DNA of 64,000 bases, taken from assembly GCA_043228905.1 (NCBI GenBank), contig JBHGNT010000009.1, positions 6,572,001 through 6,636,000 of the forward strand. The letters run 5' to 3'. The position numbers and the translations under genes are program-made. Below are positions 1 through 64,000 of the stretch, piece after piece; the stretch's first letter is position 1, and each line of letters opens with the position of its first letter. Source of the stretch: Azolla caroliniana (lineage: Eukaryota; Plantae; Polypodiophyta). The notes under the pieces are model-generated. The model did no database searches and had not been told where the DNA came from. It saw nothing but the letters and a program-made list of their open reading frames with translations.

Positions 1-273
1 TCATAGTAGTACAGAGAGAGAGAGAAGTGAAGCCATTAGTTTTGCGAAGATACAGAGCTCGAGGTCATTGCCTCTGAGTCTCCTGTTGTACCTCCTTTCT
101 CGTATAGTGATAGTTGGAGTCTATGGGCTCCCGTGGTTTTTCTCTATTAGGGCTTTCCACGTAAACATCTTGCGTGGTCTCTTCTGTGTAAGTGTACGAA
201 CCTCCATTTCTATTTTGTTCTTTCATAAAGTGAATTGAGTCTCGATTGTGGTCAAGCGTTATTCCACACAAAC

Positions 274-285
274 TGGTATCAGAGC
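274..285 (+). promoter_or_regulatory. Primer binding site complementary to initiator tRNA-Met
   Basis: TGGTATCAGAGC begins 3 nt after the LTR end ...CCACACA (270). Confidence 0.93.
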
Positions 286-2999
286 AAATAAGAAAATGGA
301 AGAGTCATTCGGAAGCATGTTCAAGCTCACTAGCTCCAACTACCCAGTATGGAAGTTGAAGATGAGGGACATGCTTGTGGTCAAAGATCTATCGTTCCCG
401 ATATAGTTCGGGGACAAGAAACCGGACAAGATCGATGCCACAACATGGGAGGTGATGCACATGAAGACGACGACATACATCAAATGCTTCATCAACATGA
501 GTCTATACAACAACTTCAACGAAGAAAGCAAGGCTCATGAACTCTGGGAGAAGGTAGACATCATGTTCCAAAACAAGAATGTTGTGAATCAAGTCTCGGT
601 TTTCCAGAAGTTGGTGAGACTCATATATCAAGATGGCTCTAGTATGGTGGAGCACATGAATTCCTTCCAAGGGCTCATAAATCAAGCCACCTCGTTGGAA
701 GTACCTCTAGTCGATGAGGTACTTGCGTTGTTATTCCTCCGTTCCCTCCCGGATAGTTGGGAGACACTAGTTGTCACTTTGGGTAACATCAGGCCAGAAT
801 GAAACCAATTATCCCTAGCAAGTGTGAAGTCGAGCTTGCTAGATGAAGAGGCGCATCGGAAAGACAAGTGATCTCCAACCCAAAAGCCCTGATTTCCGAA
901 TCCGACACACAACGAGGGAGAAACCGGTACCAGAGTCCCCATAACCGAGAAAAGTCGGGGACAAGGTCAAAGTCAAGGGGGAAGCCTACTTGCTTCTATC
1001 GTGGGAAGCTAGGATACTTCAAGAAGAATTGTCGGCACTTCCAGAAAGAGAAAGGGACCAACAACACCGATTCGAAGAAGAGTTCGGACCGAAATGGTTC
1101 GGACCGGATCGGAAAGGAATGTCGGCGGTCGCGACAAGTGAAGAAGAACTATTGCTCATCACTGAGGAGAATGAGTTAAACCTTATTGGCGACGAGACAA
1201 CGTGGGTTGTCGATTCCGGAGCATCGTTCCACCTAACGCCGGACCGGAAATGCTTCTCATCCTACATTGTCGGAGATCATGGTCGTGTCCGGATGGGGAG
1301 TGACGGGTCATGCTGAATTGTCGACATAGGAGATGTGTAGTTGTCGACATCAATCGGGTGTAAGGTGCTGCTGAAGGATGTTAGACGCGTTCCGGAGGTT
1401 TGGTTGAACCTGATATCAGCCGGTCGGCTAGATGATGAAGGCTACACGAGTAGCATCCGGAACGGAGTCATGAAATTCAGCAAAGGAAGCCTAATTGTGG
1501 CTCGATCCCGGAAGATCAACACATTGTACCTGATGCACGCCCGGATATGCCGGGAAGAAGTGAACGTAGCATCCGACAATGCCGGTGAGTTGTGGCACAA
1601 GAGACTATGTCATATGAGCTAGAAGGGGATGAGAAGACTTGCCGAAGATAACCTCATTCCGGAGGTGAAAGACATGCATCTTGAGAAGTGCACTGATTGC
1701 TTGGCTGGCAAGCAAAACCGAACCTCCTTCCAGTCAAGACCACCGATGAGACAAAATGCATCACTTGAGTTGGTGCATACCGATGTGTGTCAAGTGGACA
1801 TGAAGTCACATGCTAGATTGCAGTACTCCGTGACGTTCATAGATGACCACAACTGGAAGTTGTGGGTCTCACCGTTGAAGACGGAGGAGCAGGTGTTGTC
1901 AGTCTTCAAGGAGCTCCACGCAAGAGTGGAAAGGGAAACTAGCTAGAAGCTAAAGGCAGTACGAGCAGATAACGAAGGCGAATACTGGGTGCAGTTCGAG
2001 AAGTACTACTGATCAAAAGGAATTTGGCTCGAATTCATCGTGCCGAAGACACTGGAATTGAACGGGCTGGCTGAACGGATGAACCGGACCATAATGGAGA
2101 GAGACCGAAGCATGCTAGCAAATGCAAAGTTATCAAAGACGTTTTGGGCTGACGCACTGATGACGGCGACGTACGTGATTAACATATCACCCTCAACACC
2201 CTTGGAAGGAGACACACCACAAAGATTATGGACCGGTAAAGACGTGTCTTACAGGCATCTAAAGGTGTTCGGGTGTCTCGTATATGTGCATATCGCAAAG
2301 GATAGGAGAGCAAAGTTGGACCCGAAGTCCCGGCCATGCATATTCCTTGGATACAACAATGATGAGTTCGGTTACCGAGTGTGGGATCTGGTCGACAAGA
2401 AGGTGTTCCGGAGTCAGGACATAGTCTCCTTGGAAGACAGGACCATTGCCGACTGGGAGTCGGAGAAGAAGATGATGGACTTCGAATCAACCAACAAAAA
2501 CCAGTTTGAGTACACAAGGACTTCCTTGGTTGAAAACCGAAGGTTAGTCGGTAATCGGATGAGACTCGATGAACCGACCAGATTTGGAACAAGAAACTGA
2601 ACGGACCGAAGAAGAAGAAGACACCGGAACTAGACAAGACCCCGAATCAGATTCAGATGAGGAGCAAACGAAGGAACCGATATTCGGAAATCAAGGACGA
2701 AGATATCCTCTAAGAGAGAGAAAAGCCCCCCGGAGATTTCTGGATGTAGAGCATGTGCTGTTAACTGATGAAGGGGAGCCGGAAAGCTTTGAAGAAGCAA
2801 AGAAAGACACATACAAGTGGTTGAGTGCCATGCAGGATGAGATGGATTCCTTGCATGAGAACCATACATATGAGTTAACGAAGCTGCCGAAAGGAAAGAG
2901 GGCACTCCATAACAAGTGGGTATACAAGCTAAAACTGGGAGACGCCGGAAATCCACCAAGGTACAAAGCCTGGATTGTGGTGAAGTGGGTTTCAGAAGA

Positions 3000-4405
3000 A
3001 GAAACTAGGGCTAGAAAACAGAAATAGTGAGGAAAAGAAAAGTCGACTCATATAGACAAGCTTGTTTTTAGGGGAAAAAGGCAAGCAATGTTAAACCTAT
3101 AAATAAGAGCCAATTCTAGTGAAGAAGGGGGGGAGGGAGAAGGAACGTGGAAGCTCTACTCAATTGGAAAGTGGAAGAAGAAGGATCAACAACATCGAGA
3201 GGCATCATCAATAAAGAAACTCCTTCTATACTACACTCTCTTCTTTCCTCCACCTCTCTTCTCCCATTCATTTATAAACAATCCTTCATCTTCGCATCCA
3301 ACCCATTGTAACATGATTCTTATATTATAAAAGAATCTATTATATTGATATAAACTAATGTTTTCTTTCATCTACCTGTCTTATGTGTAAATCTTTATTG
3401 TGCTTATTTGTTATCGTCATTTGTGCTTTTTTTTTGTGTGTCTTGTGACAAGGGAGCGTTTCGGGCTTGCCCATGCACCTCTCCTTTCACAAAGGCATTC
3501 AAACCTACATGTCTTATATGATATCGTCGTTTGTGCTTATTTGCTTGTGTGTCTTGTGACAAGGGAGCGTTTCAGGCTTTGCCCATGCACCTCTCCTTTC
3601 ACAAAGGCATTCAAACTTACGTGTCTTGCGTGTTAGTGTAAATCTTGCTTGTGTGTTCGTGCGACTTGTGGTAAGGGAGCATTCGGGCTTGCCCATACAC
3701 CTCTCCTTTCACAAATGTGTTCGAAATCGTGTCTCCCATGTGTAAACCTTGCTGTGTGTTCATGCAACTTGTGGCAAGGGAGCGTTCGGGCTTGCCCATG
3801 CACCTCTCCTTTCACAAAGGCGTTCGAAATTGTGTCTCCCATGTGTAAACCTTGCGTGTGTGTTCGTGCAACTTGTGGCAAGGGAGCGTTCGGACTTGCC
3901 CATGCACCTCTCCTTTCACAAAGGCATTCGAAATGGTTTCTCCCGTGTGTAAACCTTGCTTGTGTGTTCGTGCGACTTGTGCCAAGGGAGCGTTCGGGCC
4001 TGCCCATGCACCTCTCCTTTCACAAAGGCGTTCAAAATTGTGTCTCTCGTGTATAAACCTTGCTTGTGTGTTCGCGTGTTTTGTAACAAGGGAGCGTTTG
4101 GGTTTGCCCATGCACCTCTCTTTTCACAAAGGCATTTGAAACTCTGTCTCTCGTGTGTGTAAGTAAGCCTTTTCCTTGTGTGTCCGTGTGTAAGCCTTCC
4201 TCACGTGCCTTCATTCGCCTTGTGACTAGGGGTTGATTCGGGCTTGCCCATGCGCCTCTCCTTTTCACAAACACGTTTGAATACTCGTGCCTTGTTTGTG
4301 TAAGCCTTCCTTGTGTTGTGTGTGTAAGCCCTATTTCCTTCCCGTCCATAACCCTGGCGGTTCCGCCTCACGATCCGCACATAGTGACGGATTTTCACGA
4401 CAACA
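3000..4405 (+). mobile_element. 5'-truncated LTR of an unrelated element inserted in the copia A RT
   Basis: RT homology stops at ...KGFQK (~2997) and resumes at 4406 (QADHCVFVK) with the intervening RT codons missing. The insert has TATAAATA near 3098 and ends ...CACGACAACA. No TSD is visible because of the deletion. Confidence 0.7.
3443..4270 (+). repeat. Tandem array of 8 units, ~104 bp (range 103-139)
   Basis: Core AGGG(A/G)...GGGCTTGCCCATGCACCTCTCCTTTCACAAA recurs at 3451, 3562, 3674, 3777, 3881, 3985, 4089 and 4228. Confidence 0.95.
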
Positions 4406-4776
4406 CAAGCCGATCACTGCGTATTTGTGAAGAACTTCGATGGAGGAGACTTCCAAATAGTCCTTCTATACGTGGATGACATGTTGATCGTCGGACGAGA
4501 CCAAATCAAGATCTGAATGTTGAAGAAGGCCCTAAACCGAATCTTCTCAATGAAAGATTTGGGTTCAGCAAGACAGATTTTGGGGATGTACATCATCTGG
4601 GACCGGTTGAAGAAGTTGTTGTGGTTGTCACAAGAGAAGTATGTGACAAAGGTGCTTCAGAGGTTCAACATGGTAGATGCAAAGCCAGTTGGGTCAACAT
4701 TGTTGGTGAACTGCAAGATGTCTGGAAAACAGAGCCCGAGAACGAAGGCAGAGAAGTCAGAAATGATGGAGATACC

Positions 4777-5417
4777 TGACGGGAACTCAACGCTCCTTAT
4801 GCGCAACGCTCGGCCACAACCGAGCTTAGAATGATACACAGAAAGCGGGAAATGAAACACGACACAAAGAAGAGGAAGATACACAGGAGGTTTACGTGGA
4901 AAACCCCAAACTAAGGGAAAAAACCACGGCAACCCACAGGCTGCAACTATCACTATGTTGGAATGTACAAACAGTGAGTTCACGGAGGCAACGACCTCGT
5001 GCTCACGATCTTCGCCACAGACGGCGGTTACAACAGAGGCAACGACCTCTTTCTCTCTCTCACTCTCTGTACAGTTACACACTCTCTCTTTACTTGCACC
5101 AACAAGAAACGACAACCACTTCAACTAACAGTTTGCCCTAAGTCATATTTATACTAATATGACTTTTCGGCTATTTACAAATATAGCCTCGATGGACTCT
5201 CAGAAACATATTTACGAATATGTCTCTTCATCCGGTTCATACCGGGTCTGCAACATCCGGCTCTCCGTAGCCGGGTATTCCTCATTCGGTTCATACCGGG
5301 TCTGCACCATCCGGCTCTCCGTAGCCGGGTACTCCTCATCCGGTTTCGGCCTCGGCCGAGTTTGTTCATCAGCACTGTTCTTCTCCCTTCCCATCCAGAG
5401 GGACCTGTCTCCCAACA
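4777..5417 (-). mobile_element. Solo LTR (641 bp) related to copia A, with 5-bp TSD ATACC
   Basis: TG...CA ends. ATACC at 4772-4776 and 5418-5422. Splits the RT motif IP|YAS..SLMYAMVCTRP. Shares TATAAATATGACTTAGGGCA and GGTTTTCCACGTAAAC with the element A LTR. Contains an internal 54-bp duplication at ~5225-5345. Confidence 0.93.
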
Positions 5418-6079
5418 ATACCATATGCCTCTACCGTCATAAGCTTGATGTATGCAATGGTGTGCACCCGGCCGAATATTGCTTATGATGTAGGAGTAGT
5501 CAACCGATTCATGAGCAATCCAGGAAGAGAACATTGGAACGCGGTCAAGTGGATACTCCGATACTTGAAAGGCACCTCGAGTATGTGCCTCCGGTTCGGC
5601 TCAGGTAAACCCCAACTGGAAGGCTTTACGGATTCAGATATGTCGGTTGATGCGATACCAGCCGGTCCACTTCCGGATACGTCATGACATATGCAGGGGG
5701 AGTCATATCGTGGCAGTCGAGGCTGCAGAAGTCCGTTGCACTCTCAACAACGGAAGTGGAGTACATGGCAGTTGTGGAAGCCGGTAAGGAAGTAATCTAG
5801 ATGAAGGACTTCATCGGAGAGTTAGGGATTCAACATGAAGAATATCGACTCTACTGCAATAGCCAAAGTGTCATCCACCTTACTAAGAACGCGACCTACC
5901 ATTCCCAAACCAAGCACATCCAGAGAAGACATCACTAGCTCCGAGAGAAGGTAGAAGATCAAGACTTCGCACTGACAACGATCCACACGAAGGAGAACGG
6001 TTGTTAGCCGACAACCTGGACACGTGCCGAAGACATATCGAACTAACGAGAAATCCCATGTTGGAGTGAAGGGGGAGTT

Positions 6080-6598
6080 TGTTGGAAATTCGGTCCCTCC
6101 AGATGGGATCCGGACGAGCCGAAGGAAGGAACCGAACCGGACTGGAAGATATCCGAATGGATCCGGTGTGAACCGGATCTAGGGACATATTTGCAAATAT
6201 GTTTCTGGTGTGCCTGTAAAGGCTATATTTGTAAATAGTCTTAAAGTCATATACGTATAAATATGACTTAGGGCAATCACTTTGATGTGCGAGTGTTGTT
6301 GTTGTTGTTGTTGTGGTTAGTTGTATCATAGTAGTACAGAGAGAGAGAGAGAGAAGTGAAGTCGTCGGTTTTGCGAAGATACATAGCTCGGGTCGTTGCC
6401 TCTGAGTCTCCTGTTGTACCTCATTTCTCGTATAGTGATAGTTGGAGTTTGTGGGCTCCCATGGTTTTTCCCTATTAGGGTTTTCCACGTAAACATCCTA
6501 TGTCATCTCTTCTTTGTAAGAGTACGAACCTCCATTTCTGTTTTGTTCTTTCACAAAGTGAATTGAGTCTCGGTTGTGGCCGAGCACTATTCCGCACA
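6080..6598 (+). repeat. 3' LTR of copia element A (519 bp, TG...CA)
   Basis: Starts TGTTGG just after the PPT GAAGGGGGAG; TATAAATA near 6256; ends CCGCACA; homologous to 1-270. Confidence 0.93.
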
Positions 6599-7995: not shown

Positions 7996-9465
7996 GACAA
8001 GAAATGGAAATGATATTGTATTATGAGAAAATAAGGTTACAAAGAGTCGGCTAAGGGCTAAAGACTGCTGTTGAACCGAATGAGTTGTGATGAATGAATA
8101 AACACCTATTTATAGGTCCTTATGGAGTATTCTAGAAAGTTCTAGAATATTTTGGATATTTATAATATTTAATATAATCGTGGAATATTCTAGAATACTC
8201 TAAATAACTTGTAATAACTAATAATATATTTATTATAATTATACATCATATATGTTATTATAATGGTTAAATGTCTAACATATAGACCAAGACCTTGTGG
8301 GTTCGAATCCTTGTAAGGTCAAAATGTATGTCTTCATGACATTATCTCCCCTTTTCGACGACGAGTCGGAAGACAAGATTTCGGACTTGGGCTTATGGGG
8401 ATATTTGTTGTGAAATGCAACAACCATTTCAGAGGCATTAGCAAGATTCTCGAGAGGTTCCTATGTTTGATCATTAAGTGTATAACCCAACCAGTCAACC
8501 AAATAATACAGTTTATTGCGAACGATCTTGGAGTCGAGAATGGCAACAACTTCATATTCGGAGCCATTGAAAATTTCGATTGGAGGTGGGGGAGATGTAA
8601 GACGACTTGGAATAGAGCTGGTTGTGTAGGGCTCCAATAGTGAAACATGGAAGACCGAGTGAAGACGCATATGAGGAGGAAGATCAAGGTGAAATGCCAC
8701 ATCATTGATCTTACCAGATATCAAATATGGGCCAAAACGTTGATAATCCTTTGCCTACTCTTTGTAACCTTGTTTTATCATAATACAATCAAATTTCCAC
8801 TTCCTATCTTATCTCTCTATCTATCTCTATCTCTATCTCTATCTCTCTCCTACTAACGAGTCATGACAGTTTGAACCGAATGGAATGTGATGAATGAATA
8901 GACACCTATTTATAGGTCCTTATGGAATATTCTAGAATGTTCTAAAATATTTTAGATATTTAATATAATCGTGGAATTTTCTAGAATGTTCTAGAATACT
9001 CTAAATAGCTTGTAATAACTAATAATATATTTATTATAACTATACATCATATGTTATTATAATGGTTAAAGGTTTAACATATAGACCAAGACGTTGTGGG
9101 TTGGAATCCTTGTAAGGCCAAAATGTATGTCTTCATGATTCTAGGAGGAGCCGAAGGCAAGAATCGACAACGATTGACATTACGATCCGGCCTCAAGTTG
9201 AGCTTGAGGGGGAGTGTTGAGCCGATAAGCTCAACATGAATCGGATTAGCATTAGGAAGGGAGGGAACCAAATCGGTGTGATACCGATAGGCCATTAGAG
9301 GCTTACGATCCTAGTCTAGTACATAGTTTGGGAGTTAGTGTTTGTCACTCACTACGAGCATTGAAGTACTTGTCAATACTTTTGTCAACAAGTCCATTTG
9401 TATAAAAAGTGTTATGATGCACATTTGTATGTACAAAGCTTTTTGAAATAGAGATTTATTGTCTT

Positions 9466-28050: not shown

Positions 28051-28519
28051 TGTGCAAACCAACTCCTTTATCTATGTGTTTGTTCTAAGTGACTTTGTGT
28101 GGGTAGATGTATACAAGTAACTAAGCTCGTGTATGCTTAAAGAGTGGTTATGTGGGTGGGTGTGTATGTTCATGTGTGTGCATACCTATGTGCTAATGTA
28201 TAAATGTAATTATGTATTCGTATTCGTATTCATAATTGTATCTATATCTATAGATCTATATATGTATTAGCATTGGTAGTTGTATCCATAGTATTAAGTT
28301 TTAACCATACGTACCATACGTGCATTCGCATTCGAGTATGGTAAACATCCTCGAAGTATGGTAAATACCATACTTTTGTATTCATTATTTATTATAAGGT
28401 TTTTTTAAGGTAAAAAGTGTAAAATAACATAAGAATGTTTTGGTAACATACACATTCGTTTGCATTCGTATGAAAAAAAAATCTTTGTCGATGCATTCGA
28501 GTGTATTACGTACTATGGT

Positions 28520-28730
28520 TGTATTTGTATTTGTATTTGTATTTGTATTTGTATTTGTATTTGTATTTGTATTTGTATTTGTATTTGTATTTGTATTTGT
28601 ATTTGTATTTGTATTTGTATTTGTATTTGTATTTGTATTTGTATTTGTATTTGTATTTGTATCTATATCTACATCTACATCTGCATTCATATTTGTATTT
28701 GTATTTGTATTTGTATTTGTATTTGTATCT
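28520..28730 (+). repeat. (GTATTT)n microsatellite within a GT/AT-rich low-complexity tract
   Basis: More than 20 perfect GTATTT units at 28520-28660 and further units to ~28730. Confidence 0.97.
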
Positions 28731-29431
28731 GTAAAGTTGTATTTGTGTGTGTACATGTGATCAAGGGCCCAGATACTAATGTGTAAAAGTCTATGGATGT
28801 GTTCGTGCATACCATTTCCATGTGTGTGTGTGTGTGTTAAGTATACGAATGTGTATGTAAATGAATGCATGTGTAATTGTATATTTGAGTAAGTGCGCGT
28901 GGACATGTGTGTTTGTATGTAAGTATATTTATATAAATAAGTATGGGTATTTGTATTTGTATTTGTATGCATATGAGTGTGTGCATACATATTAACATGC
29001 AGAAGTATGTATGGTTTGTTGTGCGGATATGTATATGTAAAAGTATGTGAGTATGTGTAAGTACAGTCGTAAATGTAAGGAGGTGTGCAAATGGACGGGT
29101 ATGGATGTGTTAGTATGTTGAGTACGTTAATGTATAGGAGTATCTACAAGTATGTTGATGTGTCTTAGATATTACTAATTTATGGAAAAGAGGTAAGTTT
29201 TCTATGTAAGCCCTCGTATTAAAGGCTCTCTTCTTTGCACTCTCGGTGCTGGAATGAATCAGCATTCATTCCAACAACGGCTATGACACTCTCTCCACTC
29301 CCTCGATGATTGAGCTCTCTAAGTGTGTCCTCTCACATGGATGTGTTCACTCTAGGGAGGGTTGGATCCTCTTCATGTTTTCTTCCCGAATTTGTGGTTA
29401 TTCACATACTCATCTTCAAGTTTCCCACTAG

Positions 29432-41147: not shown

Positions 41148-48829
<7,682 letters not shown>

Positions 48830-49898: not shown

Positions 49899-52800
49899 TG
49901 TTAGCCGTTCGGCTACGCGAAGGATAAAGGTCAACAATTTGGAGTCGGTGTCGAAGTTGGACAATATAAAAAGACAGATTTTAAAATGTAATTTTGTCGA
50001 GTATAAACAATATTGTAATTAGGACAATTTTGTATAACTGTAGGTTCTTGCTGAACAAGCAAGTGTATCATCTTGGAAAAGACTCTCAGGCCGCCTATAA
50101 AAAGGGATCGAGAACATTGTATTATTATTGTTCTGTTTTGGTTAATATAGTTTTGGTAGTTAAGAGTAATTGCTATGTCGACTGTTCTGTCTATTTCATT
50201 CTTCTATATTTACCGTGTCCAATGTTTGAACCTATTCTCTACGACACATATTATGTTATACTAACAGTCGATCAGAATCGGAGGTTCTAGTTCTAAGAAA
50301 TTATATTCTGAGTGATCATAGTTTCATATAAAATTCTGAGCTAGTGTTGACACATACCATCTCTCCAACCACAATCATCTTGATAGAACGTTCTCGGTAG
50401 CGAGACGTTTCACCTATTGTGTCTCTCAACTGTCGTCCGAACAACACAATATTTTGGCATGCCCGATTACATCTGCTACGAGCAGAGAACAAGGAGAATG
50501 GATGTCGTGTAGTCGACTCAATACAGATAAGCTTGCAGAAAGTAGAAGACTACGCACGAGATCGGAGAGCCGATGTGCAGAAAGGGATAGTTCCGATAGT
50601 TCGGAGTTTGCCGAACAAATCCAACAAGCAGCTAAAGGGGAATTGAGAGCACTTCCCGATTTAACTACTGATAGTAGTTCGGACGAGGAGCAATCTGACC
50701 AGAGATACTTAGTCGAACTTTGTGAGGAGGATACAATGTCGTATCCATATCCCAAGTATAATGATGAAGCTGACGCAGAGGCGTAGGTGCATGCTTTTCT
50801 TACGACATAAGCTATGATAATTTTCGTGGAGGTATATAAAAAAGATGGCAGGCTAACCATGTGTCGCAGAGATTGTTGGAAGCAAATGCCTCAGCATCAA
50901 ATTAAGATGTGAAGCCAATATAGCAACAACGGTATAGACTAAACCCGAATTACGTGGTAAAAGTAAAAGAGGAAATCGATAAGTTGTTATGGGTCGGCTT
51001 CATCTGACCTGTCAAGAAAGACACTTGGCTGAGCCCAATAGTCGTTGTGCCCAAAGTGAATGGACAAATTAGGGTGCGTGTCGATTATCGAAAGCTGAAT
51101 GTGGCAATTTCCGTTACCTTTCACAGATGAGGTTCTCGATGCGGTAGCCGGGCATGAAATTTAGAGTTTTCTCGATGGGTTCAGTGGATATAATAAGATT
51201 CGAATGCATCTCGATGATCAAGAAAATACGGCTTTTGTCACTGAAGGGGGTGTGTTTGTAGCAGTCGTCATGGTGTTCGGCCTCAAAACAACTCCAACGA
51301 CATTCCAATAGGTAATTATGGAAATATTTTCCGATTATATCCCAACATTTATGAAGGTGTTTCTAGATGACTTTGTTGTGTAAAGGCGGAGAAGCGACCA
51401 TTTTGAACATCTTCAACTCTGTTTGGAAAGATGTCGACAAGGTCGGTTAAGCTTAAATCCAACGATTTGGGGTAACAAGTGGAATGCGACTGGGTCATAT
51501 TGTTAGTCGGGACGGAATTGCCGTAGATCTCGACAAGGTGAAAGCAATAATAGAGGCACCACCGCCAACAAACGCCAAGGCATTGAGCCGATTCTTGGGC
51601 CAAATTAGATGGAATATTCAGATGATCAGATACTTGGCTAATGTAGCAACACCTCTTCATGTGGCAGTGCATAAAACACCTTTCCAATGGTCGACAACCG
51701 AATAGGATGCTTACGATTGTTTGAAGAAAACGATGTCCAAAGTACCAGTTGTGCAACCACCAGATTGGGCAAAAGACTTTCATGTCTTTGTCGATGTCTT
51801 GGATATAGCCATTGGAAGTGCATCGATGCAACTGTCGGAGCCGAACTGGTACAAACAAGTATACTACACCTACGCCGAATGAAACTATTTAACTGTTGAA
51901 TGAAACTATTCGACAACTGAATGGGAAGATCTTGGCAGGATATATATCCGACTATTTAAGTCGACTAGAGTCGGGAGAACCAGGTACGGATGTTAGTGAC
52001 GATTTTCCAGATGCGCAACTCTTCCGAGTCGAAGCTATCAATTCGACGAGGTCAATGAAGAATTAGCCGATTTATGGATCACAGAGATGACGCTATTTCT
52101 CAGTACAAGATTACCACCTGAGGGTATGTCGCTAGATGAACGAAAACGACTTGTTGTTCGGAGTCGGAACTTTTGTCTGTTGAAGGAAACGTTATATCAT
52201 AAAGGAGTTGATGGAGTTTGGCGGCAATGGTTTGACAGTTCGAAAAGGAAGCTATTTTACGTGAGACGCATTGTGGAATTGGTGGTGGGGATTATGTAGG
52301 CGATACAACCGCACTCAGAACACTTGAACTTTTTCAAAAATGGGGCTTAGATTTCGTCGGACCATTTAAGCCAGTAGCAGCAAGAACCGGTAACCACTAT
52401 GTGATAGTCAATATCGATTATTGTATGAAATGGATCGAAGCAAAGGCTCTCAGGGATAATACGATGGTTTCCACATCCAAATTCTTGTACGAATGCATAT
52501 GGTGTAGATTCGGCTGCCCAATTGAACTTGTAAGTGACCAAGGTACTCGTTTTATTAACAAAGTCATCTATGAATTATCAAACAATTATGCAGTCATGCA
52601 TAAAAAGAGTACACCATTTTATCCGCAAGCCAATGGATTAGTAGAATCGACGATTTAGATGATTTTGAAGAAAATCGTCAATGAGAATCGAACTGATTGG
52701 GATCAGAAGCTACATAGTGCGTTATGGGCATACAAAACAACCTACAAGACTATGATCAGGTCAACTCCATTTTGGATGGAATTTGGCTTAGAAGCGGTTA

Positions 52801-55800
52801 TGTCAATTGAATTTCAGATTCCAAGCTTAAGAGTGCAGGTGACAGAGCCCCTGGATGAAGAACAATTAGAACAAGTTTGGAAGGAACAACTTCTTACATG
52901 GGAAGAAAGTCGACTATAGGGGATGACATTGGTATCTAGAGCATAAACAATGGAAAACAAAGGCATTTTGGATCGACACCGACATGGTAAAGAGAAGCTT
53001 TTCGACATCGGTAAGCTTTTCTTAGTCTTTCAGACGAAAATGGGTGCCATGCCAAGGAAACTGTGATTTCGATGGACATGCCCTTATTGGATTGACACAA
53101 CAACATCAAGGGAACATATCAAATCGACACGTTAACTGATGAGGTTTTACCCAAGTGGGTGAATGGGTTCCGACTTAAGCCTTATCAAGGGTCAACACCG
53201 ACTAATCCATTCGAACCAGGAAATGCACAAGGCAGTCGGCCGACTACCCTGACAATGGTCGGTGAACCATGACCAATACAAGGCCATAATTGTAATAAGA
53301 AAAACAAAAACAGAAAACAGAAAACAGAAGAAATAGAATATCAAATCAAATCTTGGCATAATTACTTCTTGGCATTGTCCTTTTCAGATTATATATGGAC
53401 ATGCGTGCTTATGATTTAGTACTTATGATGAGTGGTGGCTATTGAAAAGGGCATTAATAGTAGATTCTATTATTGCAGGTTCTATCTTGAGTTATGGGCC
53501 CCTTCCATAGAAAAACTTTTTCAGTTCCTTTTCCTCACACAGAGAAGCATAGAAAAACCCTAGCATATAGAAACGCACGGGTGAATAGAGAGACGCGCAC
53601 ACAATCACAGGCGAACAAAGCGACAAGTAAAGAAGCGCAGATGAACAACCGACTCTCCAACTCCTCCACTGAACACAACGAGGTTGCTAACACAGAAGAA
53701 GAGCAAGAAACCATGCTGATGCAAGTCTCATAACACTTGCGTCGCTGGATGCAGACCAATGGGTTGGAGGGATACCTTCAAGTCACAGATGCAAAACCTC
53801 ACCCGTAGCCTGAAGAAAGAATTAATCAGATTGACGTCGAAAAAATTACCAACAAACAAGTGCACCTATTCTTAAAGATGAAAAAAGAGGGGTATAATGA
53901 AATGGATGTAGTCAAACCAGAGATCCTAGAGTCTTATTTTGGTGAATACTCTCCGTTAGCCAAAGCGTATAGGACACAAGGAGTTAACGATGTGTTCTTT
54001 CACGATGTGGCCAAATTTTTGTCAGAAGTGGCTTGTGTTAGTCCTTGGTCATATTGCATGCCCAAACAAAGGGATGGCTTCATTATCGCAACATATGAGG
54101 GGGAAAAAATCGACTTGGGGTGGATTACGGGGATCACGCTCCGAGAACAACTCCATGGGGTTTAGATGGGCAAACCCATGAAGTTGATTTTCGCATGGTG
54201 GCTAGCGATATCGTGCCTCGCACCAGTAGCCGACACAGGATGTAAGACCCCAAGAAAAGAGAAGGGGCAGTCATCACAAGCACTACCACAACAATTGGCA
54301 AGAAGAACAACGTTAACACGACTTCAACAAGACAAAACAAAGCTAAAGGAAGCGGACAAACATCTCCAAACGTGCGACTATGCTAGGATCCCTCATGTAC
54401 CAGATCGACAATCATGGGATCAACTACAAGCGACGGAGAAGTTAGCCAAAAGCGCCAACAACAGGGCAGAAGGAGCTGAAGCAAAAGTACAACGAATGAA
54501 AGGCCGCCTTCAAACAGACCAAAGACAATTTGAAGCATTGTTTCAAGCCAAGAAGGACGAAATAACTAACCTTAATCAACAACTACAACAACAGATGATG
54601 GAGACGAAGGACGAATAAGAGAAGATAGACAAGCTCGAGTTATATATTAAAATGCAAGAGGAGCATTATCTGGAGCACACAACCAAGCTCGAAATGGAAC
54701 AAGAGGCATCGACGACGAAATACGATTAGCTAACCGAGAAGTATGAGCAAAAGAGGCTTGCATTATTGGTGGCAGAAACGAAATTGCAGTTCGACCAAGG
54801 CTTGGTAGAAGTTTGACTATCCGAAATGTGGAAGGAACTGGCCAATATGCAGTATAGACTCAACATGGGAGGGGAAAAAGTGTTCCTTATCTTATCTAGG
54901 CACAAGACCAATACACGACAAATGGTCGCCGAATCCTTGGACAACGGTTGGAAGACATGGTCGGCTCAAGCTACCGAATTATAGTTATTAAGTGCCGACC
55001 ATGAGAACAGGGAGAAGCATGGTCAGGGCTTCTTCAAAATGGATGAAGCAACTATTGCCACAATCCAAGAAGAGCTAGCCCATGACATATATGAGCTTTC
55101 AACGCGCCACAAGGAAGAGATCACCAAGCTGATGGAGGAATATGAGGACCAACAGATGGCAATTGTAGTGGAGCTCGATACCTATGAGGACGAACCAACT
55201 TAGGAAGAATCAGGCCAAAAAATACTTGTAAGAAACATCCATCAAGAGGACGAAACTGAGCAGGAGGTTGAGGCGGAATCGATGTTGCGGATGGAGGAGC
55301 TTAACACAGACAACCCACAAAATTTGACTGACGCAAAAGAGAAGGAGGAGCCCAATCTGTTCGACATAATGAACAAGGACGTGAGTGAAATAGATGAAGA
55401 GGACCCGATTGACGACGAACAAATAGTCAACAATGAGGAAGGGGTCCCACGGTGTGCCATGTGTTAGCCTGTCAGCTACCCGAAGGATAAAGGTCGACAA
55501 GTCGAAGTCGGAGTCAGACAATATGCAAAGACATATTTTAAAATGTAATTTTGCCGAGTATAAACAATATAGTAATTAGGACAGTTTTGCATAATTGTAG
55601 GTTCTTGACGAATAGGCAAGTGTATAATCTTGGAAAAGACTCTCAGATCGCCTATAAAAAGGGACGGAGAGCACTGTATTATTATCGTTTTGTTTTGGTT
55701 AATATAGTTTTGGTAGTTAGAGTAATTGTTGTGTCGACTGTTCTGTCTATTTCATTCTTCTATATTTACTATGTCGAATATTCGAACCTATTCTCTACTA

Positions 55801-56002
55801 CACAGATTATGTTATACTAACAGTCGATCCGAATCAAAGGTTCTAGTTCTAAGTAATTATATTCTGAGTGATCATAGTTTCATATAAAATTCTGAGCTAG
55901 TGTCGACACATACCATCTCTCCAACCACAATCATCTTGATAGAACGTTCTCGGTAGCAAGACGTTTGACCTATTGTGTGTGTCGGCTGTCGTTAGAACAA
56001 CA
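49899..56002 (+). mobile_element. Ty3/gypsy non-chromovirus element C, internally deleted and decayed
   Basis: LTRs 49899-50446 and 55462-56002 (TG...CA). TSD GTTCT/ATTCT. PBS-like TGGCATGCCCG near 50455. Degenerate RT (FLDDF), RNaseH and integrase (KWGLDFVGP, SDQGT). Extra-ORF remnant at 53716-55440. Confidence 0.93.
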
Positions 56003-57205
56003 ATTCTAACCACACCTAATTGTAATCTTTGTTTCGATTACTATAAATCACAATATTATTAAGGGTTCTACGTAAACTCGTTCTATTTATTAATCACTCG
56101 GCTTATGTTTAATGATTGTGCTTGCTAATTAACTTGTCTATTATCGAGGATTTAACCTCTTGAATCTCTATTTGTGTTTTGAAGCCATGGCCACCAATGC
56201 CCCCTGTACGGTGCCCATATATGGGCTCAAGGCCTCCTGGAAGACATGTGAACACATATAGAGCGTCCACTAGGCATGATGTTGTCACCAATGATATCTG
56301 GCAAAGAATCCACCCCACAAGAGATCATAATTGGCAACGCCCCCCCACAATGCTAGAAACATTACTCCAAACAATGAACTGTGTCACCTCAAAGAATTAC
56401 ATGTAAGGCATTTGAACCATCATGGCAAATGGCCACCAATGTCTCTCTACTAGTGTTTTGAAGCCATGGCCACCAATGCCTCTGGTATGATGCATCCTTT
56501 TCAACCGCATTTGAACCATGTTCACTCAAAGAATTACATGCAAAGCATTTGAAACATCAAAGCAAATGGCTATAATAGAACGCACAAAAGGATCATGGTA
56601 TGTACAATTAGTGATGAAGTGGTTCAACATTAATGGCCTCAACATTGAGATCTTGCCACACTTTCCATATTGTACATCGTTCACAAATGATGAATGTAAA
56701 AAAGTGTTAATCGGCTAAGTACTAACTACTACCGATACAGAAGAGTGAACGTCGCTACTCAACGTTCTAACAAGGAATTGTGTTTTACGAACGGAATTAT
56801 ACTGTATTAATCGGTAATTACCGTGATCGTTACTTAGTTATAAATTAGGAAGCTTGCACTTAAGATCATAGACAATAAAAGAAACACAGAATTCGTACAA
56901 GATATCCCTAACTTAAACTTATATTACTAAATAGAACGACCTTTCTTACAATGCCTTCGGTTCCCTTTTATAGGTATACCGAAGGTCTTTTCTCATCAAG
57001 AACTATTCCTACTTACTATCAAGATTTACAAAATTATCTAACTAACTTAGTTCTCTTCGTTTACTGCTGAGTCATTGATCCGAACAGTCGATCCGAACCG
57101 ACTCTGTTTTCGACGCTTTCCCACTTGTTCGGTAAAACTGACTGTCCGGGTCCGGGTAACACTTGGCACGTCTGTGGGCCAGGACCTTGTCCAGCGAACC
57201 CACAC

Positions 57206-59659
57206 CTATTCCTGTAGCTCTTCATCCGAATCGTTTAGAATATCAAAAATCGAAGGCTCATCTGGCCTTGGATGTATTCCACCTATATCTTCCTCTTCAT
57301 CTTCATCTGTGTCACAGTCGTCCTTCGGAGCAGGTTGTGATTCGGTTGGCTGCTCTGGTTCACTTCTTCCGGAAGCTTGAATACCAGGAGTCTTGCTGGT
57401 TTTTTCGGCTTCGATTTTATCCAACTGGACGGAAGTGCCTATATCATTTTTGTCGAATTCTTGCATAATACGTTGAATTTCTTCTCTGTAAAATGCCGCA
57501 ATTTCGTCCATATCTTTCATGATATCCTCTTGGATATTGTCAATATCCTTTTGTGCCATTTTAAAAAAACCTACACCTTGTACCTGACGGTTATTTTTGT
57601 CGGCACGCAATAACTGTAATTCCGCCGCTTGTGCTGTCCATAACTTCCATCCTTGCGCAAGGGATTCATCGATCATTTTCTTTGCTAGGTTTCGATGTTT
57701 ACCTATGATGTGCTGCACTTTGTCCCTAGTGATGCTTGCGACGTATTGGGCGGTCTGCAACTCTTTCTGTAAATCCGTAATAGTGGTTCGGTTCTCACTT
57801 TCAGCTCGCATTAGTTTGGATTCGACTACATATATATCCAGCCGTCTTTGTTCCGATATCTTCCGAATTTCGTCCAGTTGTTGTTCGAATGCCGATTTCT
57901 CTTTACTCCATTCCTCCTGCTGTTCCGTCATTCTTCTGTTGACTTCTTCAAGACTCCGCTGTTTTTCTGTCAATTGACTTTCCTGTGACACTATATACCT
58001 TTCGAATTCTTCAATTTGTTCGGTATATGTATGATTGGCCGTCTTAGCTTCTTCTAGATTTTTCTGTAATTCGTTTATTACTTGATTTTTTTCTTCGAGA
58101 GCTTTGTATTGACCATTCTGAATGGTTTCTATTTGCTTTTCTAATTCTGTAGTTCGAAATACCGCATTGTTGGCCCTTGTTGTTTCTGCTTGACGTGCTT
58201 TCTAAGCGTCCTCCAATTTCTGCTGCCATTCTGACTCCGACACCATAAGCCGTGCCTGTGTTTCCCATTTGTTTAGACTTTCCTTTAGTTCTTTATTTTC
58301 TGCCTGTATGTTACAAAACTGATGTTTCAGCACCTCCGCCGATGCTGATACACTTTTGTATCTTTCAGCCATATCACTGGCTGCTTTGCGTGCCGTTTCA
58401 TATTCTTTATGAATTTCGACCAGTGCTTCATGTAATGGTGGCATTTCAATAGCTTCCCCTCTATGCTGTGCACTTCTTTTCCGGCCTATTTTCTCTATCT
58501 CTGCTTTTTCTTGAGGTTCCAACATTCCTCGTAAGGCTTTCTGTATCATTATTCGGTCATTATGTTCTTGAGCCAGCCGTTCTGATACTTCTGTCAGTCT
58601 TTTAGCCAACCATTCAACCAGTTCGTATGAAGTTCCGAACTGTAAAATGGCAGCTAATTCATGTGCTGCTGGTGGGATATCCAAGTACCCATGTGCTTCC
58701 CGAATGGCTACTTTTGAAGATTGTCCTTGGTGAGGTTGTGTCAAAACGCTCTCATTCCCTGGTTTTAGTACTTCTGTTACCATAGGCATATTCGACTTTT
58801 CATTTGTGCGTTGCCTTTTCGGTGCTGATCCCTCACTGTTTTCTGGTTGGAATTGCCGATTAGCCTTTTGTTTAATCCTTGTTCTTTGTCTCATCTTCTC
58901 TGCTTGTTGTCGATTTTCTGTCGGCTGTTGCTTGTTTATCAAATTGTCAACTGTTTCTTGTTCTGTCGCTGGTTGCTTGTTTTCGGAATTCTCTGGTCTT
59001 GGTGGTTCCGACTGAGGCATATTTGTTTGTATATTATCGGCATGTGCCGATTCTTCTTCTATCCATTCTTCATGTACTACCTGTCGGTGTCTTCGTGGTG
59101 CTTGTACTATCGGTGGTCTTCTTGACTGAACAGGAGTTTCCGATTCTTGAATCGGAAACAATACTGATAACCAACGACCAAAAATTTGCTTCATCGGTTT
59201 TCCTGTTTTTACCCCTTGTAGCTGCTCTCTCAGAGCTTCCCCCGACAATAGTGGCCAGTTGAAATCCTCTTTTTCGTATGCGGCTATGATAAATCCAGCC
59301 CTTTTTTTCGGCATACAATAAAAACGAGGACTGACAAATCCCACCTCTAATAGAAATCTAGCCACTTCATGAAAAAACTCATCCCGACCTCCATAAGTCT
59401 GATATGCTTTTGCCGAGGGTGAGTATTCCCCGAAATACGATTGGAGTGCTTCTGATGAAGGTTTTTTAACTGCCTCAAAGCCTCCTCTTGGCATTTGTAA
59501 TGCATTTCGTATTTTCTTTGTGGTGATTTTGGTGATGTCCATTTGTTGTACCAATTCTTCCGCCTGCGGATGAGGTTCCGCTTCTGCTACTTTGATGAAA
59601 CCTTGTAGGTTTCTCTCATGAAGCCACAATCGCAGTTCTTCAGATACAGGAATCGACAT
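57206..59659 (-). pseudogene. Extra (env-position) ORF of element D, ~817 codons, one in-frame stop at 58202; function unknown
   Basis: ORFs 58202-59866 and 57206-57991 share a frame. Globular N-terminal domain, long coiled-coil-like region and acidic tail. Homologous to element C 53716-55440. Confidence 0.85.
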
Positions 59660-60066
59660 GACTTCTGTATTTCCTTGTTCTGAATCACTTGTCGATGACA
59701 GTTGCAGATCTGCACAGTTTCTGTAGCGATGAAAATCAGAAAAGCAGAGTTTGGGCGAACTAGGGCACGAAGGAGGCTCAGACTGTTTCGATATCTGCAC
59801 TCGTTTCTGTTGTTTTGACGACACAGATGATATAGAAATATGCTTTAAAGATATTAACTTATGCATGATGACTTAAAGAATAGTAATTGCTATTAATGTA
59901 GGAATTAATTAGTATTCACTCTACGTGTAGTGGTTGTACTCCTTACTAATAATCATGCAATTCCTCTTTCTATTTATAGTCGATTCATACTGTTATGGCA
60001 AGATTGTATTTCTGCATTTGACAAGAACTATTGAGTGAGTTAGTTAGTTTTTTTTTTTTTTTTTTT

Positions 60067-63000
60067 TTACTCTTCCGTTTGAATAAACGGATTTACCGGC
60101 ATATCTCCCAAATACGGTTTAAACCGAAATCCATTTACCCATTTCGGTAAAACCTCTCCGGTTAATGATCCCTGTTGGTACGTACCATTTTTACTATTAA
60201 TTATCCATACTGGACCTGTCCATCTATACCGAAGTTTCCCAGGCATAAGTCCCATTCTCGTTTGGAATACTAATACCGGTTTCCCAATTTCGAATTGCTC
60301 TTCCGATTTCCTTCGATGTCGATTTACGAATGCCTTGATTTGTCTCTGCTTGTGTTCTAGTGCTGACATTGATTGAATCCATTCTTCTTCTAATACTAAT
60401 AAAGCCTCCTTGCGTATCTGCTCCGATTCTATTTCATTTAACTTATTCGTTGCTTGGATACGAAGTGTCGGAATTTGAAATTCGATCGGCATAACGGCTT
60501 CGAGTCCGAATGCCATTCGGAAAGATGTTGATTTAATGGATGTTTTGTACGAAGTACGATATGCCCATAATGCACTATTTAACTTTTGATCCCAATCAGT
60601 ACGATTTTCATTTACTATCTTCTTTAAAATTGTTTGAATTGTTTTATTTGTCGATTCTGCCAATCCATTAGCTTGGGGATAGTAAGGCGTACTTTTCTTA
60701 TGAACTACGGCATAGTAATTGGTTAATTCGTTAATTAACTTGTTAATAAAATGAGTGCCTTGATCGCTTACCAATTCTATTGGGCAACCGAATCGACACC
60801 ATATATTCTCATACAGGAATTTTGCTGTGGATGCTGCTGTATTGTCCCTGAGAGCTTTTGCTTCAACCCATTTTGTGCAATAGTCAGTCGCAATTATGAT
60901 ATATCGATTACCGGTTCTTGCAGCTGCTGGTTTGAATGGGCCAACAAAATCTAAGCCCCATTTCTGAAATGGCTCAAGAGGTAAAACCGGTTGAAAAGGC
61001 ATTCGATCCTTTTCGGTTGGTTGCCCCATTCTTTGACACAAATCACATTTCTTACAGTATTCGTTAGCATCTTTCATCACCGTTGGCCACCATAACCCGC
61101 TATTCCATATTTTTCTGGCTGTTGCTTCTCCTGCGTAATGACCGCCAGCAATTCCACAATGTGACTCTGTTAATATGGCTGATTTTTCAAATTTTCGTAC
61201 TGCCCTTCGCCATATTCCATCCGCTCCTTTATGATACAACATGTCATTAAATAAACAAAAATTCCGACTTCGTACTGCAATTCTTTTTCTTTCATCTGTC
61301 GACATGTGTTCGGCCGGAATTCCTGTTGATAGAAATATCGTCATTTCGGAAATCCATTCATCCTCTTTTTCCTCATTCACTTCATGTGCTTTTACTGCCT
61401 CAACCCGAAATAATTGAGTATCTGGAAAATCATCTTTAACCCCAACCGCTTCTTCTCCAGACTCAAGCCGACTGAGATAGTCAGCAATCGCGTGTTATGC
61501 TCCTGGTCGATGTATAATGTCGAATTCAAACTCTTGAAGCAATAACGTCCATCGGGCTAACTTGCCTGTCAATTCTTGTTTGGAAACTAGATACAGTAAA
61601 GCCGAATGATCCACATGAAATGTAAATTTCTTACCCAAAAGGTAATGTCGAAATTTGTTCACACTATATATCATTCCCAAAGCTTCTCTTTCGGTTGTTG
61701 AATAGTTTCTTTCGGCCGACGAAAGTTTCATACTGGCATAGTATACCGGCCTATACCAGTTTGGTTCGGATAATTGCATTAAAGCACTGCCTATGGCAAT
61801 GTCCGACGCATCGACGAAAACATGAAATGGTTTGTTCCAGTCCGGTGGTTGAACTACCGGAACCTTCGTCGGCATCTTCTTAAGACATTCGTACGCATCT
61901 TGTTCTATACTTGTCCATATAAAAGGAACTTTGTGTACTGTTGTGTGTAACGGAATAGCAATGTCTACTAGATATCTCATCATTCTACTATGCCACCGAA
62001 TTTGACCCAAAAATCTACTTAAAGCTTTAGCATTTGTTGGTGGTGTTGCCTCAATAATTGCTTTAACTTTGTCTGGGTCCACTGCAATCCCTTCTTGACT
62101 GACAATATGCCCAAGTAATGTACCACTCATTACTCCGAATGCGCATTTGGCTGGATTTAAACTAAGACGCCCTTTTCGACATTTTTCTAAACATAGCCGT
62201 AAATGCTCAAAATGATCAGCTTTCCGACTATATACCGCAAAATCATCTAAAAACACCTGCATGAAAGCTGGAATATATTCCCCGAATATTTCCTGTATTA
62301 CCCGCTGAAATGTAGCTGGAGCTGTTTTTAAACCGAACATCATGACTACTGCCACAAAGACACCCCATTCTGTGACGAAAGCTGTCTTTTCCTGATCTTC
62401 GGGATTCATCCGTACTTGGTTGTACCCACTGAACCCATCCAAGAAACTATAAATTTCATGTCCCGCTACTGCATCTAATATCCCATCTGTGAATGGCAAC
62501 GGAAACGCATCCGTAATTGTCGCTGCATTCAATTTTCTGTAATCCACACATACGCGAATTTTCCCATTCTTTTTCGGGACTACTACTATCGAACTCAGCC
62601 ATGTTGATTTTTTGACGGGTCGAATAAATCCTACTTTTAAGAGTTTATCGATTTCTTCTTTTACTTTGATAGCATAATTCGGATTCAACCTGTACCTGCG
62701 TTGTTGTACTGGCTTTGCATCTTTATGCAAATTGATTTGATGTTGACAAAAAGCGGGATCCAAACCTTTCATATCGTCAAACGACCATGCAAAAACATCT
62801 TTATATTGTAATAATAATGTTGTTAATGTCCGTTTGTCATTTACTGTCAAATCTCTAGCAATCAAGACTGTTTTTCTTTCAGCATCCTCTACTCCTGCCA
62901 AATCGATCTCCTCTAATGCTGAGGCTTGCACTCTCTGAGATACCTTCATTTCCTTATCTGTAGCTTCTTGTTGCATTCGTATTTCTTTCATTGTTTGCTC

Positions 63001-64000
63001 ATCGATTGGCACTTCTTCGTGTGAGTCTACATATGGTGTTAATGCTTGCAAAATATCTACCTCAAATAGAGGGATGATTTTTTGATTATCATCAAAATAC
63101 TGACTTTCTTCTTCCTCGTCCAATCCTTCCATCATATTAACTGCTTCTGCATGTACAGGTAAACTCTGTTTGCTTGTTGTCACTTTGTTGTGCGTCGGAA
63201 TCCTGACCTTATTTTTTCCTTTCCTAAATGTTAGCACATTTTGTTTCCAATTTTGTTTAATATTAGCTGTCTTTAACCATGGTCTCCCTAATAACAAGGG
63301 GTATGCTCCCTGTGTTTCTAACTGCAAAATTACTGCCGAAATCTGAAAACTGTGCCCCCCGATTATTACATCCAGTTCTCGAAGCAAACCAATCGGTCGT
63401 ACCGTACTTGTATCTGCCATTCGTAACCAAAACGGACATGCTTCCCATTCCGTGATTCCCAGTTTTTCACATGTAGTTTTGTTAATCACATTAACACCCG
63501 AGCCTCCATCTATAATCACATTTCCGATTTCTTGCCCGTAAAGTATTACCTTAATCGACGGATTCTGTTCATCCATGATCGAAGGGTTATTACTTGGCTG
63601 ATTGTAGTGTACTGCTATTTGTTCGGAACCTTTATATGCAATTAATGCTGCCACTTTTTCTGTAAACCTTGGTACTAACTTAAGTAAGCCCGTAAGTGGC
63701 AATGACACTTGGCAATCAGCCAACAGTTTCCAAGTTTCTTCCTGTTCCTTATTCCCCAATGACTGTTGTACAGTGATGTCCTGGTCAATGTTATTGTCTT
63801 GTAACATTCGATTCACATTACTTTGATTTGCTTCATCCACCCATTCTTTTGCCGCCTTCCGAACTTCTTCCTGAATTTCCCACTCTGATTGTTTGCTTTT
63901 GCTGCGTGTCGTTACTTGCTGAACTTCCGGTATTACCATATTAACTGCTGGACCCTTTCCTTTAACCGGACATTGATTAGCATAATGGCCTAGTTGTCGA
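60067..64000 (-). pseudogene. gypsy gag-pol (end of CCHC knuckle, protease, RT, RNaseH, integrase) with one in-frame stop at 61495
   Basis: IIDGGSGVN, VCVDYRKLN, FLDGFSGYNQ, FLDDF, VDASD, NYSTTEREAL, H..H..CDLC, WGLDFVGP, SDQGTHF, RWTGP. ORFs 61495-63939 and 60067-61380 are in the same frame. Confidence 0.93.

Follow-up and report, generated by a model that had tools for sequence, protein, structure and literature searches.

A conserved tRNA-Arg-type 3' end in sense orientation in place of the polypurine tract in Ty3/gypsy families related to an Azolla element

Described priming systems and the classification of element D

Priming of plus-strand DNA synthesis from a polypurine tract (PPT) is regarded as the rule throughout LTR retrotransposons and retroviruses. 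Among the described systems, yeast Ty3 comes near to the elements considered here in having LTRs, the domain order RT-RH-INT and a tRNA-primed minus strand. As set out in the portion of PMC5371799 on which we draw, its RNase H cuts the tRNA from the minus-strand DNA, and the pairing can reach the acceptor stem and T arm of the primer. It differs in that an RNase H-resistant PPT primes its plus strand and in that the second half of its primer-binding site (PBS), located in U3 on the sense RNA, serves minus-strand initiation, whereas the site described below lies outside the LTR and has, on the sense strand, the tRNA sequence itself rather than its complement; it stands in for the PPT. Drosophila Gypsy likewise has a second tRNA site, whose sense-RNA sequence complements the anticodon stem and the T stem; yet this site is dispensable for cDNA synthesis and the PPT is kept (PMC1635307). 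The TRIMs Helenus, Cassandra and Ajax also carry tRNA- or 5S-derived sequence within an LTR element, but in the relevant part of PMC10886601 this is a Pol III promoter inside the LTR, without PBS complementarity and beside a normal PPT, unlike the CCA-ending 3' arm outside the LTR seen here. Non-standard priming is further known from Tf1/Sushi, Tcn1 and TAR, in which LTR-derived RNA replaces the first-strand tRNA (PMC6317226, in the part covered); a Tf1-type self-primer was considered for the present families and rejected, as two of their LTRs hold no complement of the PBS. For Ty1, the review describes recycling of the PPT rather than of the tRNA primer. We found no LTR element described with an inverted tRNA site replacing a PPT, either among the literature records listed or in the covered portions of PMC6317226, PMC5371799, PMC1635307, PMC3185511, PMC4408406 and PMC10886601 (Repbase and subscription journals were outside the scope), and the one supplement of PMC7544208 that was searched gave no match; Neumann's additional files 1 and 3 (PMC6317226) may list such elements.

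The element at issue, element D, occupies one end of the window, by which we mean the whole 64-kb stretch of Azolla caroliniana DNA that was analysed. Its pol shows the Pfam domains RVT_1, RT_RNaseH, Integrase_H2C2 and rve in this order, and both LTRs are present in its decayed neighbor, element C. A Pfam scan found no chromodomain after the integrase, pol ending shortly past the integrase C-terminal motif, and no additional archaeal-type RNase H of the kind seen in Tat (Ogre, Retand, TatI-III), the RNase H running straight into the integrase (the gag side lies outside the window). Element D is a non-chromovirus Ty3/gypsy element, which we do not file under any named lineage. It resembles Athila in lacking both a chromodomain and an archaeal RNase H and in having a 5-bp target site duplication (TSD), an extra ORF after pol and a non-Met PBS that is set back; however, the PBS of Athila is of the Asp, Asn or Ala type, whereas here it is of the Arg type and there is no PPT (PMC6317226). 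Arg-type PBSs are recorded in Ogre, TatIII and some Retand elements, all of which have the archaeal RNase H (PMC6317226). Phygy and Selgy combine a 4-bp TSD with a tRNA-Trp or tRNA-Ala PBS and no extra ORF, in contrast to the 5-bp TSD, Arg-type PBS and long extra ORF found here (PMC6317226). The named relatives of the D RT come from liverworts and a fern (45-57%) and from two angiosperms (43-44% identical). In a quick unrooted tree of 32 rows that holds no labelled references, D groups with an Adiantum protein (SH-aLRT 99), away from proteins of Rutidosis and Pyrus, which we take to be Athila-type.

Several other features share the window. Positions 1-6598 hold a decayed Copia element whose PBS and PPT are of the ordinary kind; it is broken by an insertion bearing tandem repeats of 104-111 nt (about 3000-4400) and an inverted solo LTR-like piece (4864-5248). 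A short minus-strand element is framed by direct repeats that are 89% identical (8071-8339 and 8860-9138); it has a purine tract before the TG and, near one end of each repeat, a stretch resembling a tRNA B box, a layout like that of the Helenus TRIM, and a similar repeat start follows an insertion in one of the metagenome loci introduced below (L051). A 12-nt tandem array at 28385-29143 carries a 252-aa open frame on the minus strand. The exon at 43606-47136, with a C5HC2 zinc finger, a weak FYRN match and about 35 copies of a 42-nt-based coding repeat, presumably belongs to a JmjC-type gene.

A tRNA-Arg-type 3' end at the 3' junction

The coordinates of elements C and D are collected in Table 1. 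The pol of D runs off the end of the window, so its 5' LTR lies outside. Relatives P0001 and P0012 keep the extra ORF open across the site of the in-frame stop in D, where the ORF has an acidic C terminus and ends 2 nt before the motif; structure leads for its product (ATHILA ORF-1, Transposase_32, plant mobile domain) are weak and all below threshold. The far end of the LTR was set at 56705 because flank contigs from four runs cease aligning at 56704. In run X1, a flank contig matches 56560-56704 with no differences and then continues for about 310 nt into other sequence, as might be expected if that sample has a site in which element D is not inserted. The only TATA box of the LTR (about 56972-56966) points in the direction of pol, and since the two are co-oriented the border of motif and LTR is the 3' junction, as a sequence-only reading of this DNA had also held. 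The 44 nt between the stop of the extra ORF and the 3' LTR (minus strand 57205..57162) read exactly as they were given in that reading, and its remark that no purine tract is present extends to all the relatives below that reach the junction. ARAGORN found no tRNA genes in the 64-kb window, and no Rfam family matched over the D motif up to an E value of 10.

Table 1. Coordinates of elements C and D and of the parts of the 3' junction (window positions)
Feature	Position	Strand	Remarks
Element C, decayed relative of D	49899..56002	+	LTRs 49899-50446 and 55462-56002, 89% identical
5' PBS of element C, decayed	50455..50467	+	8 nt past 5' LTR, then gag leader
3' motif remnant of element C	55445..55459	+	CCA-ending block, 2 nt before 3' LTR
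3' LTR of element D	56705..57161	-	457 bp, TG...CA, 5-bp inverted ends
Spacer from CCA to LTR TG	57162..57163	-	2 nt
Block matching tRNA 61-65 and 67-76, CCA-ending	57164..57178	-	Matches prokaryotic stand-in tRNA in 37-43 of 43 junctions per position
Middle, covarying hairpin opposite tRNA 58-60	57179..57194	-	16 nt; 4-bp stem, 3-nt loop, weaker 2-bp stem
Block matching tRNA 49-57 (T-stem 5' strand and TTCG)	57195..57203	-	32-42 of 43 junctions per position
Extra ORF 3' of pol, sense	57206..59872	-	In-frame stop 58202-58204
pol of element D (protease region, RT, RNase H, integrase)	60067..63999	-	In-frame stop 61495-61497

To sample the junction independently of the motif, the C-terminal part of the extra ORF was aligned with eight relatives and 74 loci were fetched from metagenome assemblies by protein rather than by the motif; they show 25-83% identity and all come from one series of assemblies. 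The CCA-ending block follows the extra ORF in 41 of the 74, which is every locus that reaches the junction (41/41). The other 33 comprise 25 that end before it, four that end inside the motif with the 5' block present, and four that are interrupted or deleted and have no LTR start. Adding D, C and a second junction in L022 gives 44 junctions; counts per position use 43, element C being excluded as its middle is deleted. At L015:1450 and L022:1985 there are second junctions, belonging to other families of the lineage, immediately behind an LTR or within one, which suggests nested insertion.

A PPT is found at none of the 44 junctions: the purine share of the final 15 nt ahead of the LTR averages 57% and never exceeds 60%, compared with 87% for the Copia PPT of this window. 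A PPT lying farther from the LTR was looked for and rejected, the purine runs 40-70 nt upstream measuring 2 to 9 nt and being pyrimidine-rich in some families. The 15-nt core, searched on both strands of the window with up to three mismatches, occurs once, in D itself, yet it stands at the junction of all 41 loci that reach it, which excludes a chance match. The junctions form 17 clusters at 65% upstream identity and 24 at 70%. Comparison between clusters (685 pairs) gives an identity of 73% for the motif and 89% for its last 15 nt, against 44% for the 41 nt upstream and 49% for nucleotides 6-45 of the LTR. The spacer from the CCA to the TG of the LTR measures 2 nt in 38 of the 44 junctions, apparently 4 nt in five that form one group, and is cut off in one; read on the window plus strand, the CCA-ending block has the form of an inverted PBS with the usual spacing, as had been noted from D alone. 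The D family is present in high copy in four sequencing runs with three species labels, and among the best 40 rows from these runs its motif varies only at 57173, 57193 and 57204, with no variant at 57162-57172. Side by side with this, loose ends at 57189-57203 lead into further repeats that share the motif and the LTR start and have different, apparently non-ORF, sequence upstream; these are possibly non-autonomous relatives.

The motif itself consists of two blocks that read as tRNA, separated by a middle of 15-18 nt in 43 of 43 junctions. A pattern made from the motif and the PBS falls at tRNA positions 49-71 in 44 of 52 viral matches; a longer version hit 14 prokaryotic loci, all of them tRNA-Arg genes, and the 12 that were checked all continue with CCA. 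No relatives turned up in viral contigs. As a stand-in for the host tRNA we used one of the prokaryotic tRNA-Arg genes (L133), which was found with the motif-built pattern and may differ from the host tRNA. Relative to this stand-in, the partner of C66 is absent from the aligned 3' block, position 58 is not kept, and the departures are mostly C>T and G>A. The three CCA positions are retained in 42, 42 and 41 of the 43 junctions. As nuclear tRNA genes do not encode CCA, this retention points to the mature tRNA. The candidate second PBS, on the minus strand, matches bacterial tRNA-Arg 3' ends as well as the family's own PBS; the tRNA-Arg-type end and the complementarity to the PBS, both proposed from D alone, are supported. 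Taken together, these observations confirm that the Ty3/gypsy families sampled here lack a PPT and have at its position a conserved tRNA-Arg-type 3' end in sense orientation.

Element C, though decayed, repeats this arrangement. Its pol is 58-79% identical to that of D (tblastn), and its target duplication is 5 bp long with four of the five bases matching. Its 3' remnant is without the hairpin and the 49-57 block, and its PBS-like sequence is complementary to its own CCA-ending block. The 5' LTR of C is preceded by the target duplication alone, which places the motif outside the LTR.

The 5' PBS was seen in element C and in L001, L007, L012, L023 and L048. It comprises 13 nt matching the stand-in tRNA, including the C that is missing from the 3' motif, and the last 11 nt of the motif are complementary to it; gag starts about 40 nt after it. 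The PBS begins 11 nt past the LTR end in L001 (spacer at L001:4875-4885), L007, L012 and L023, 8 nt past it in C (spacer at window 50447-50454) and 3 nt past it in L048. The 11-nt distance is unusually far from the LTR and would leave an extension to be trimmed before integration. The spacer and the 13-nt PBS have a depth of 2,700-6,100 in four runs, with no substitution listed. At L012:1613-1655 a PBS is joined without a gap to the 3' motif of another family in reverse complement. That the 5' PBS was ancestrally extended like the 3' site was considered on this account and rejected: the depth of the extension is 1-27 against 2,700-6,100, which marks a rare junction rather than the PBS of the family, and a misdirected strand transfer or a chimeric assembly could account for it.

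The motif and the start of the plus strand

The sequence-only reading had pictured the segment as a folded tRNA mimic, and the covariation of its parts bears on this directly. As a single copy, the D hairpin is no more stable than shuffles (z -0.12, with 89 of 200 shuffles folding as well), and the TGTGGG/CCCACA pairing in D results from two changes at CpG sites, most copies having C at minus-strand 57204 and G at 57173. In an alignment of 41 rows, 40 of them distinct (A2, with L041 and L061 left out), the outer stem shows two-sided change in one of six pairs, the change being D itself, and none in the other five. The middle has 39 two-sided cells across six pairs, in five of the six, with compensatory GC, UA and AU combinations; this covariation lies above 500 of 500 shuffles and all slid controls, although related rows inflate the value. 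RNAalifold retains the inner stem and a 3-bp stem and does not retain the outer stem, and the middle folds equally well on either strand. What stands of the folding claim is therefore an inner hairpin that covaries across copies. The notion of a complete tRNA mimic is weakened, as the outer stem does not covary, the 16-nt hairpin takes the place of the 3' side of the T-loop, and position 58 is not kept. A static outer stem around a covarying middle is the pattern to be expected if an outside partner holds the two tRNA-like blocks to their sequence while the spacer is held by its shape. Selection on the outer stem itself need not be invoked, because the two strands of a tRNA T stem are complementary to each other.

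We consider it probable that the motif marks the start of the plus strand in some way. As to how, we lean toward a host tRNA-Arg that primes the plus strand on minus-strand DNA. The minus strand would be primed by tRNA-Arg at the 13-nt 5' PBS, in keeping with LTR elements in general. After strand transfer, RT would copy U3 and the motif and RNase H would clear the RNA, as in the established pathway. A tRNA-Arg, either a second molecule or the first one recycled, could then anneal to the exposed DNA through nucleotides 76-67, 65-61 and 57-49, the pairing predicted with the stand-in tRNA, in which C66 forms a bulge and the 16-nt hairpin is extruded across from nucleotides 58-60. The m1A58 of tRNA, a usual modification, could not pair. 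RT would continue from the CCA end; once RNase H had taken the tRNA off, 2 nt would remain as an extension such as integrases trim.

Cofolding of a 28-mer of the stand-in with the minus strand gave this three-way junction in six of seven examples, the exception being C, which has no middle. Over the 44 junctions the mean net binding of the 28-mer is -24.4 kcal/mol for the minus strand, -7.4 for the plus strand and -7.4 (sd 2.8) for shuffles, with RNA parameters used as a proxy. The strength of the cofold is partly circular, because positions 49-63 rest on bacterial tRNA-Arg genes found with the motif-built pattern. The direction of substitution offers a hint, and no stronger sign, that the minus strand may be the one that binds tRNA, a G>A change keeping a G-T wobble there. 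Departures in 13 high-coverage contigs are G>A 11 times (at four positions) and C>T once, as against 26 and 19 in 30 low-coverage contigs; the excess corresponds to about four to five independent events versus one and is not significant. The same G>A changes break pairing in the sense RNA, both with the PBS (G69A in the D family) and within the stem (G51A in the L054 group), whereas the common C>T at the hairpin base 57193 in the D family suits the plus strand and points in the contrary direction. Other considerations also count against priming by tRNA: the middle folds as well on one strand as on the other, the missing partner of C66 has no obvious reason in a site selected for tRNA binding, a tRNA:DNA hybrid is a substrate for RNase H, and HIV-1 RT extends tRNA on DNA poorly.

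The main alternative, possible though on the whole unlikely, keeps the primer in cis. Here the element's own RNA would supply a substitute for the PPT in the form of the motif. Because the motif resembles a tRNA/DNA junction, RNase H would cleave at the CCA, much as in the removal of a tRNA, and the structured piece would survive to serve as plus-strand primer. No new trans step is required, the position is exactly that of a PPT, the 2-nt geometry fits, and the absent C66 is tolerated. The purine-rich loop of the plus-strand hairpin and the plus-strand wobble that the C>T at 57193 retains are in line with it as well. However, an RNA of any sequence pairs perfectly with its own cDNA, so that the invariant 49-57 block, 30-40 nt upstream, needs an extra explanation, as does the non-covarying outer stem; moreover, G51A at the family level disrupts the plus-strand stem, and the plus-strand fold is no better than shuffles.

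It is more doubtful that the sense motif acts by pairing with the element's own PBS, as had also been proposed from D alone, or with the freed 5' end of the primer tRNA. Such pairing could bridge the ends, shield the PBS or allow self-priming, the plus strand being started by some other primer. The complementary 11 nt give a predicted net -14 to -18 kcal/mol, the L012 junction couples a PBS to a reversed motif, and 5'-3' bridging has precedents in Ty3 and Drosophila Gypsy in the portions of the literature covered. The idea is nevertheless weakened by the PBS following the tRNA over 13 nt rather than the motif over 11, and by the G69A fixed in the D family, which stands opposite an unchanged PBS in the same contig (L001) as an A-C mismatch. 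It also leaves the fixed distance to the LTR and the absence of any PPT without explanation.

Reversed or two-way copying seems very improbable. In this scheme an antisense transcript would be the template, with the extended 3' site as its first-strand PBS and the short 5' PBS as the site of second-strand priming. It fits the 3' site, with its textbook spacing of 2 nt and extended T-arm pairing, and the odd 11-nt spacer of the 5' site, but the sole LTR TATA box points in the direction of pol and gag begins about 40 nt after the 5' PBS. A bolder form of the tRNA-Arg reading, in which the transcript of either strand is usable as template, we regard as scarcely more than a long shot. That the motif is left over, without function, from a captured tRNA or SINE, or matches by chance, agrees with the decayed copy and unremarkable fold of D but is hardly credible and largely refuted, since the motif is conserved far more than either flank, its middle shows compensatory changes, its spacing is fixed and its CCA is retained.

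Implications for the lineage

Returning to the tRNA-Arg reading, its general form would be that of a whole clade of plant Ty3/gypsy elements without a PPT, in which both strands are primed by tRNA-Arg, the second by way of a three-way-junction site that skips tRNA nucleotides 58-60; on balance we think this somewhat likely. Its main rival, a tRNA-end mimic serving as PPT, is likewise undescribed in the literature searched. The clade would be overlooked, or read in the wrong orientation, by annotation tools for which a PPT is obligatory. The defined 41-nt element offers a handle on primer choice by RT and on how RNase H spares or removes primers. More generally, the existence of a successful, high-copy lineage without a PPT indicates that the PPT rule can be broken. 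If dual tRNA priming is true, these would be LTR retroelements with two inverted primer-binding sites; and if tRNA primes both strands, the elements would depend doubly on one host tRNA and offer 3' tRNA fragments two possible points at which to hit them.
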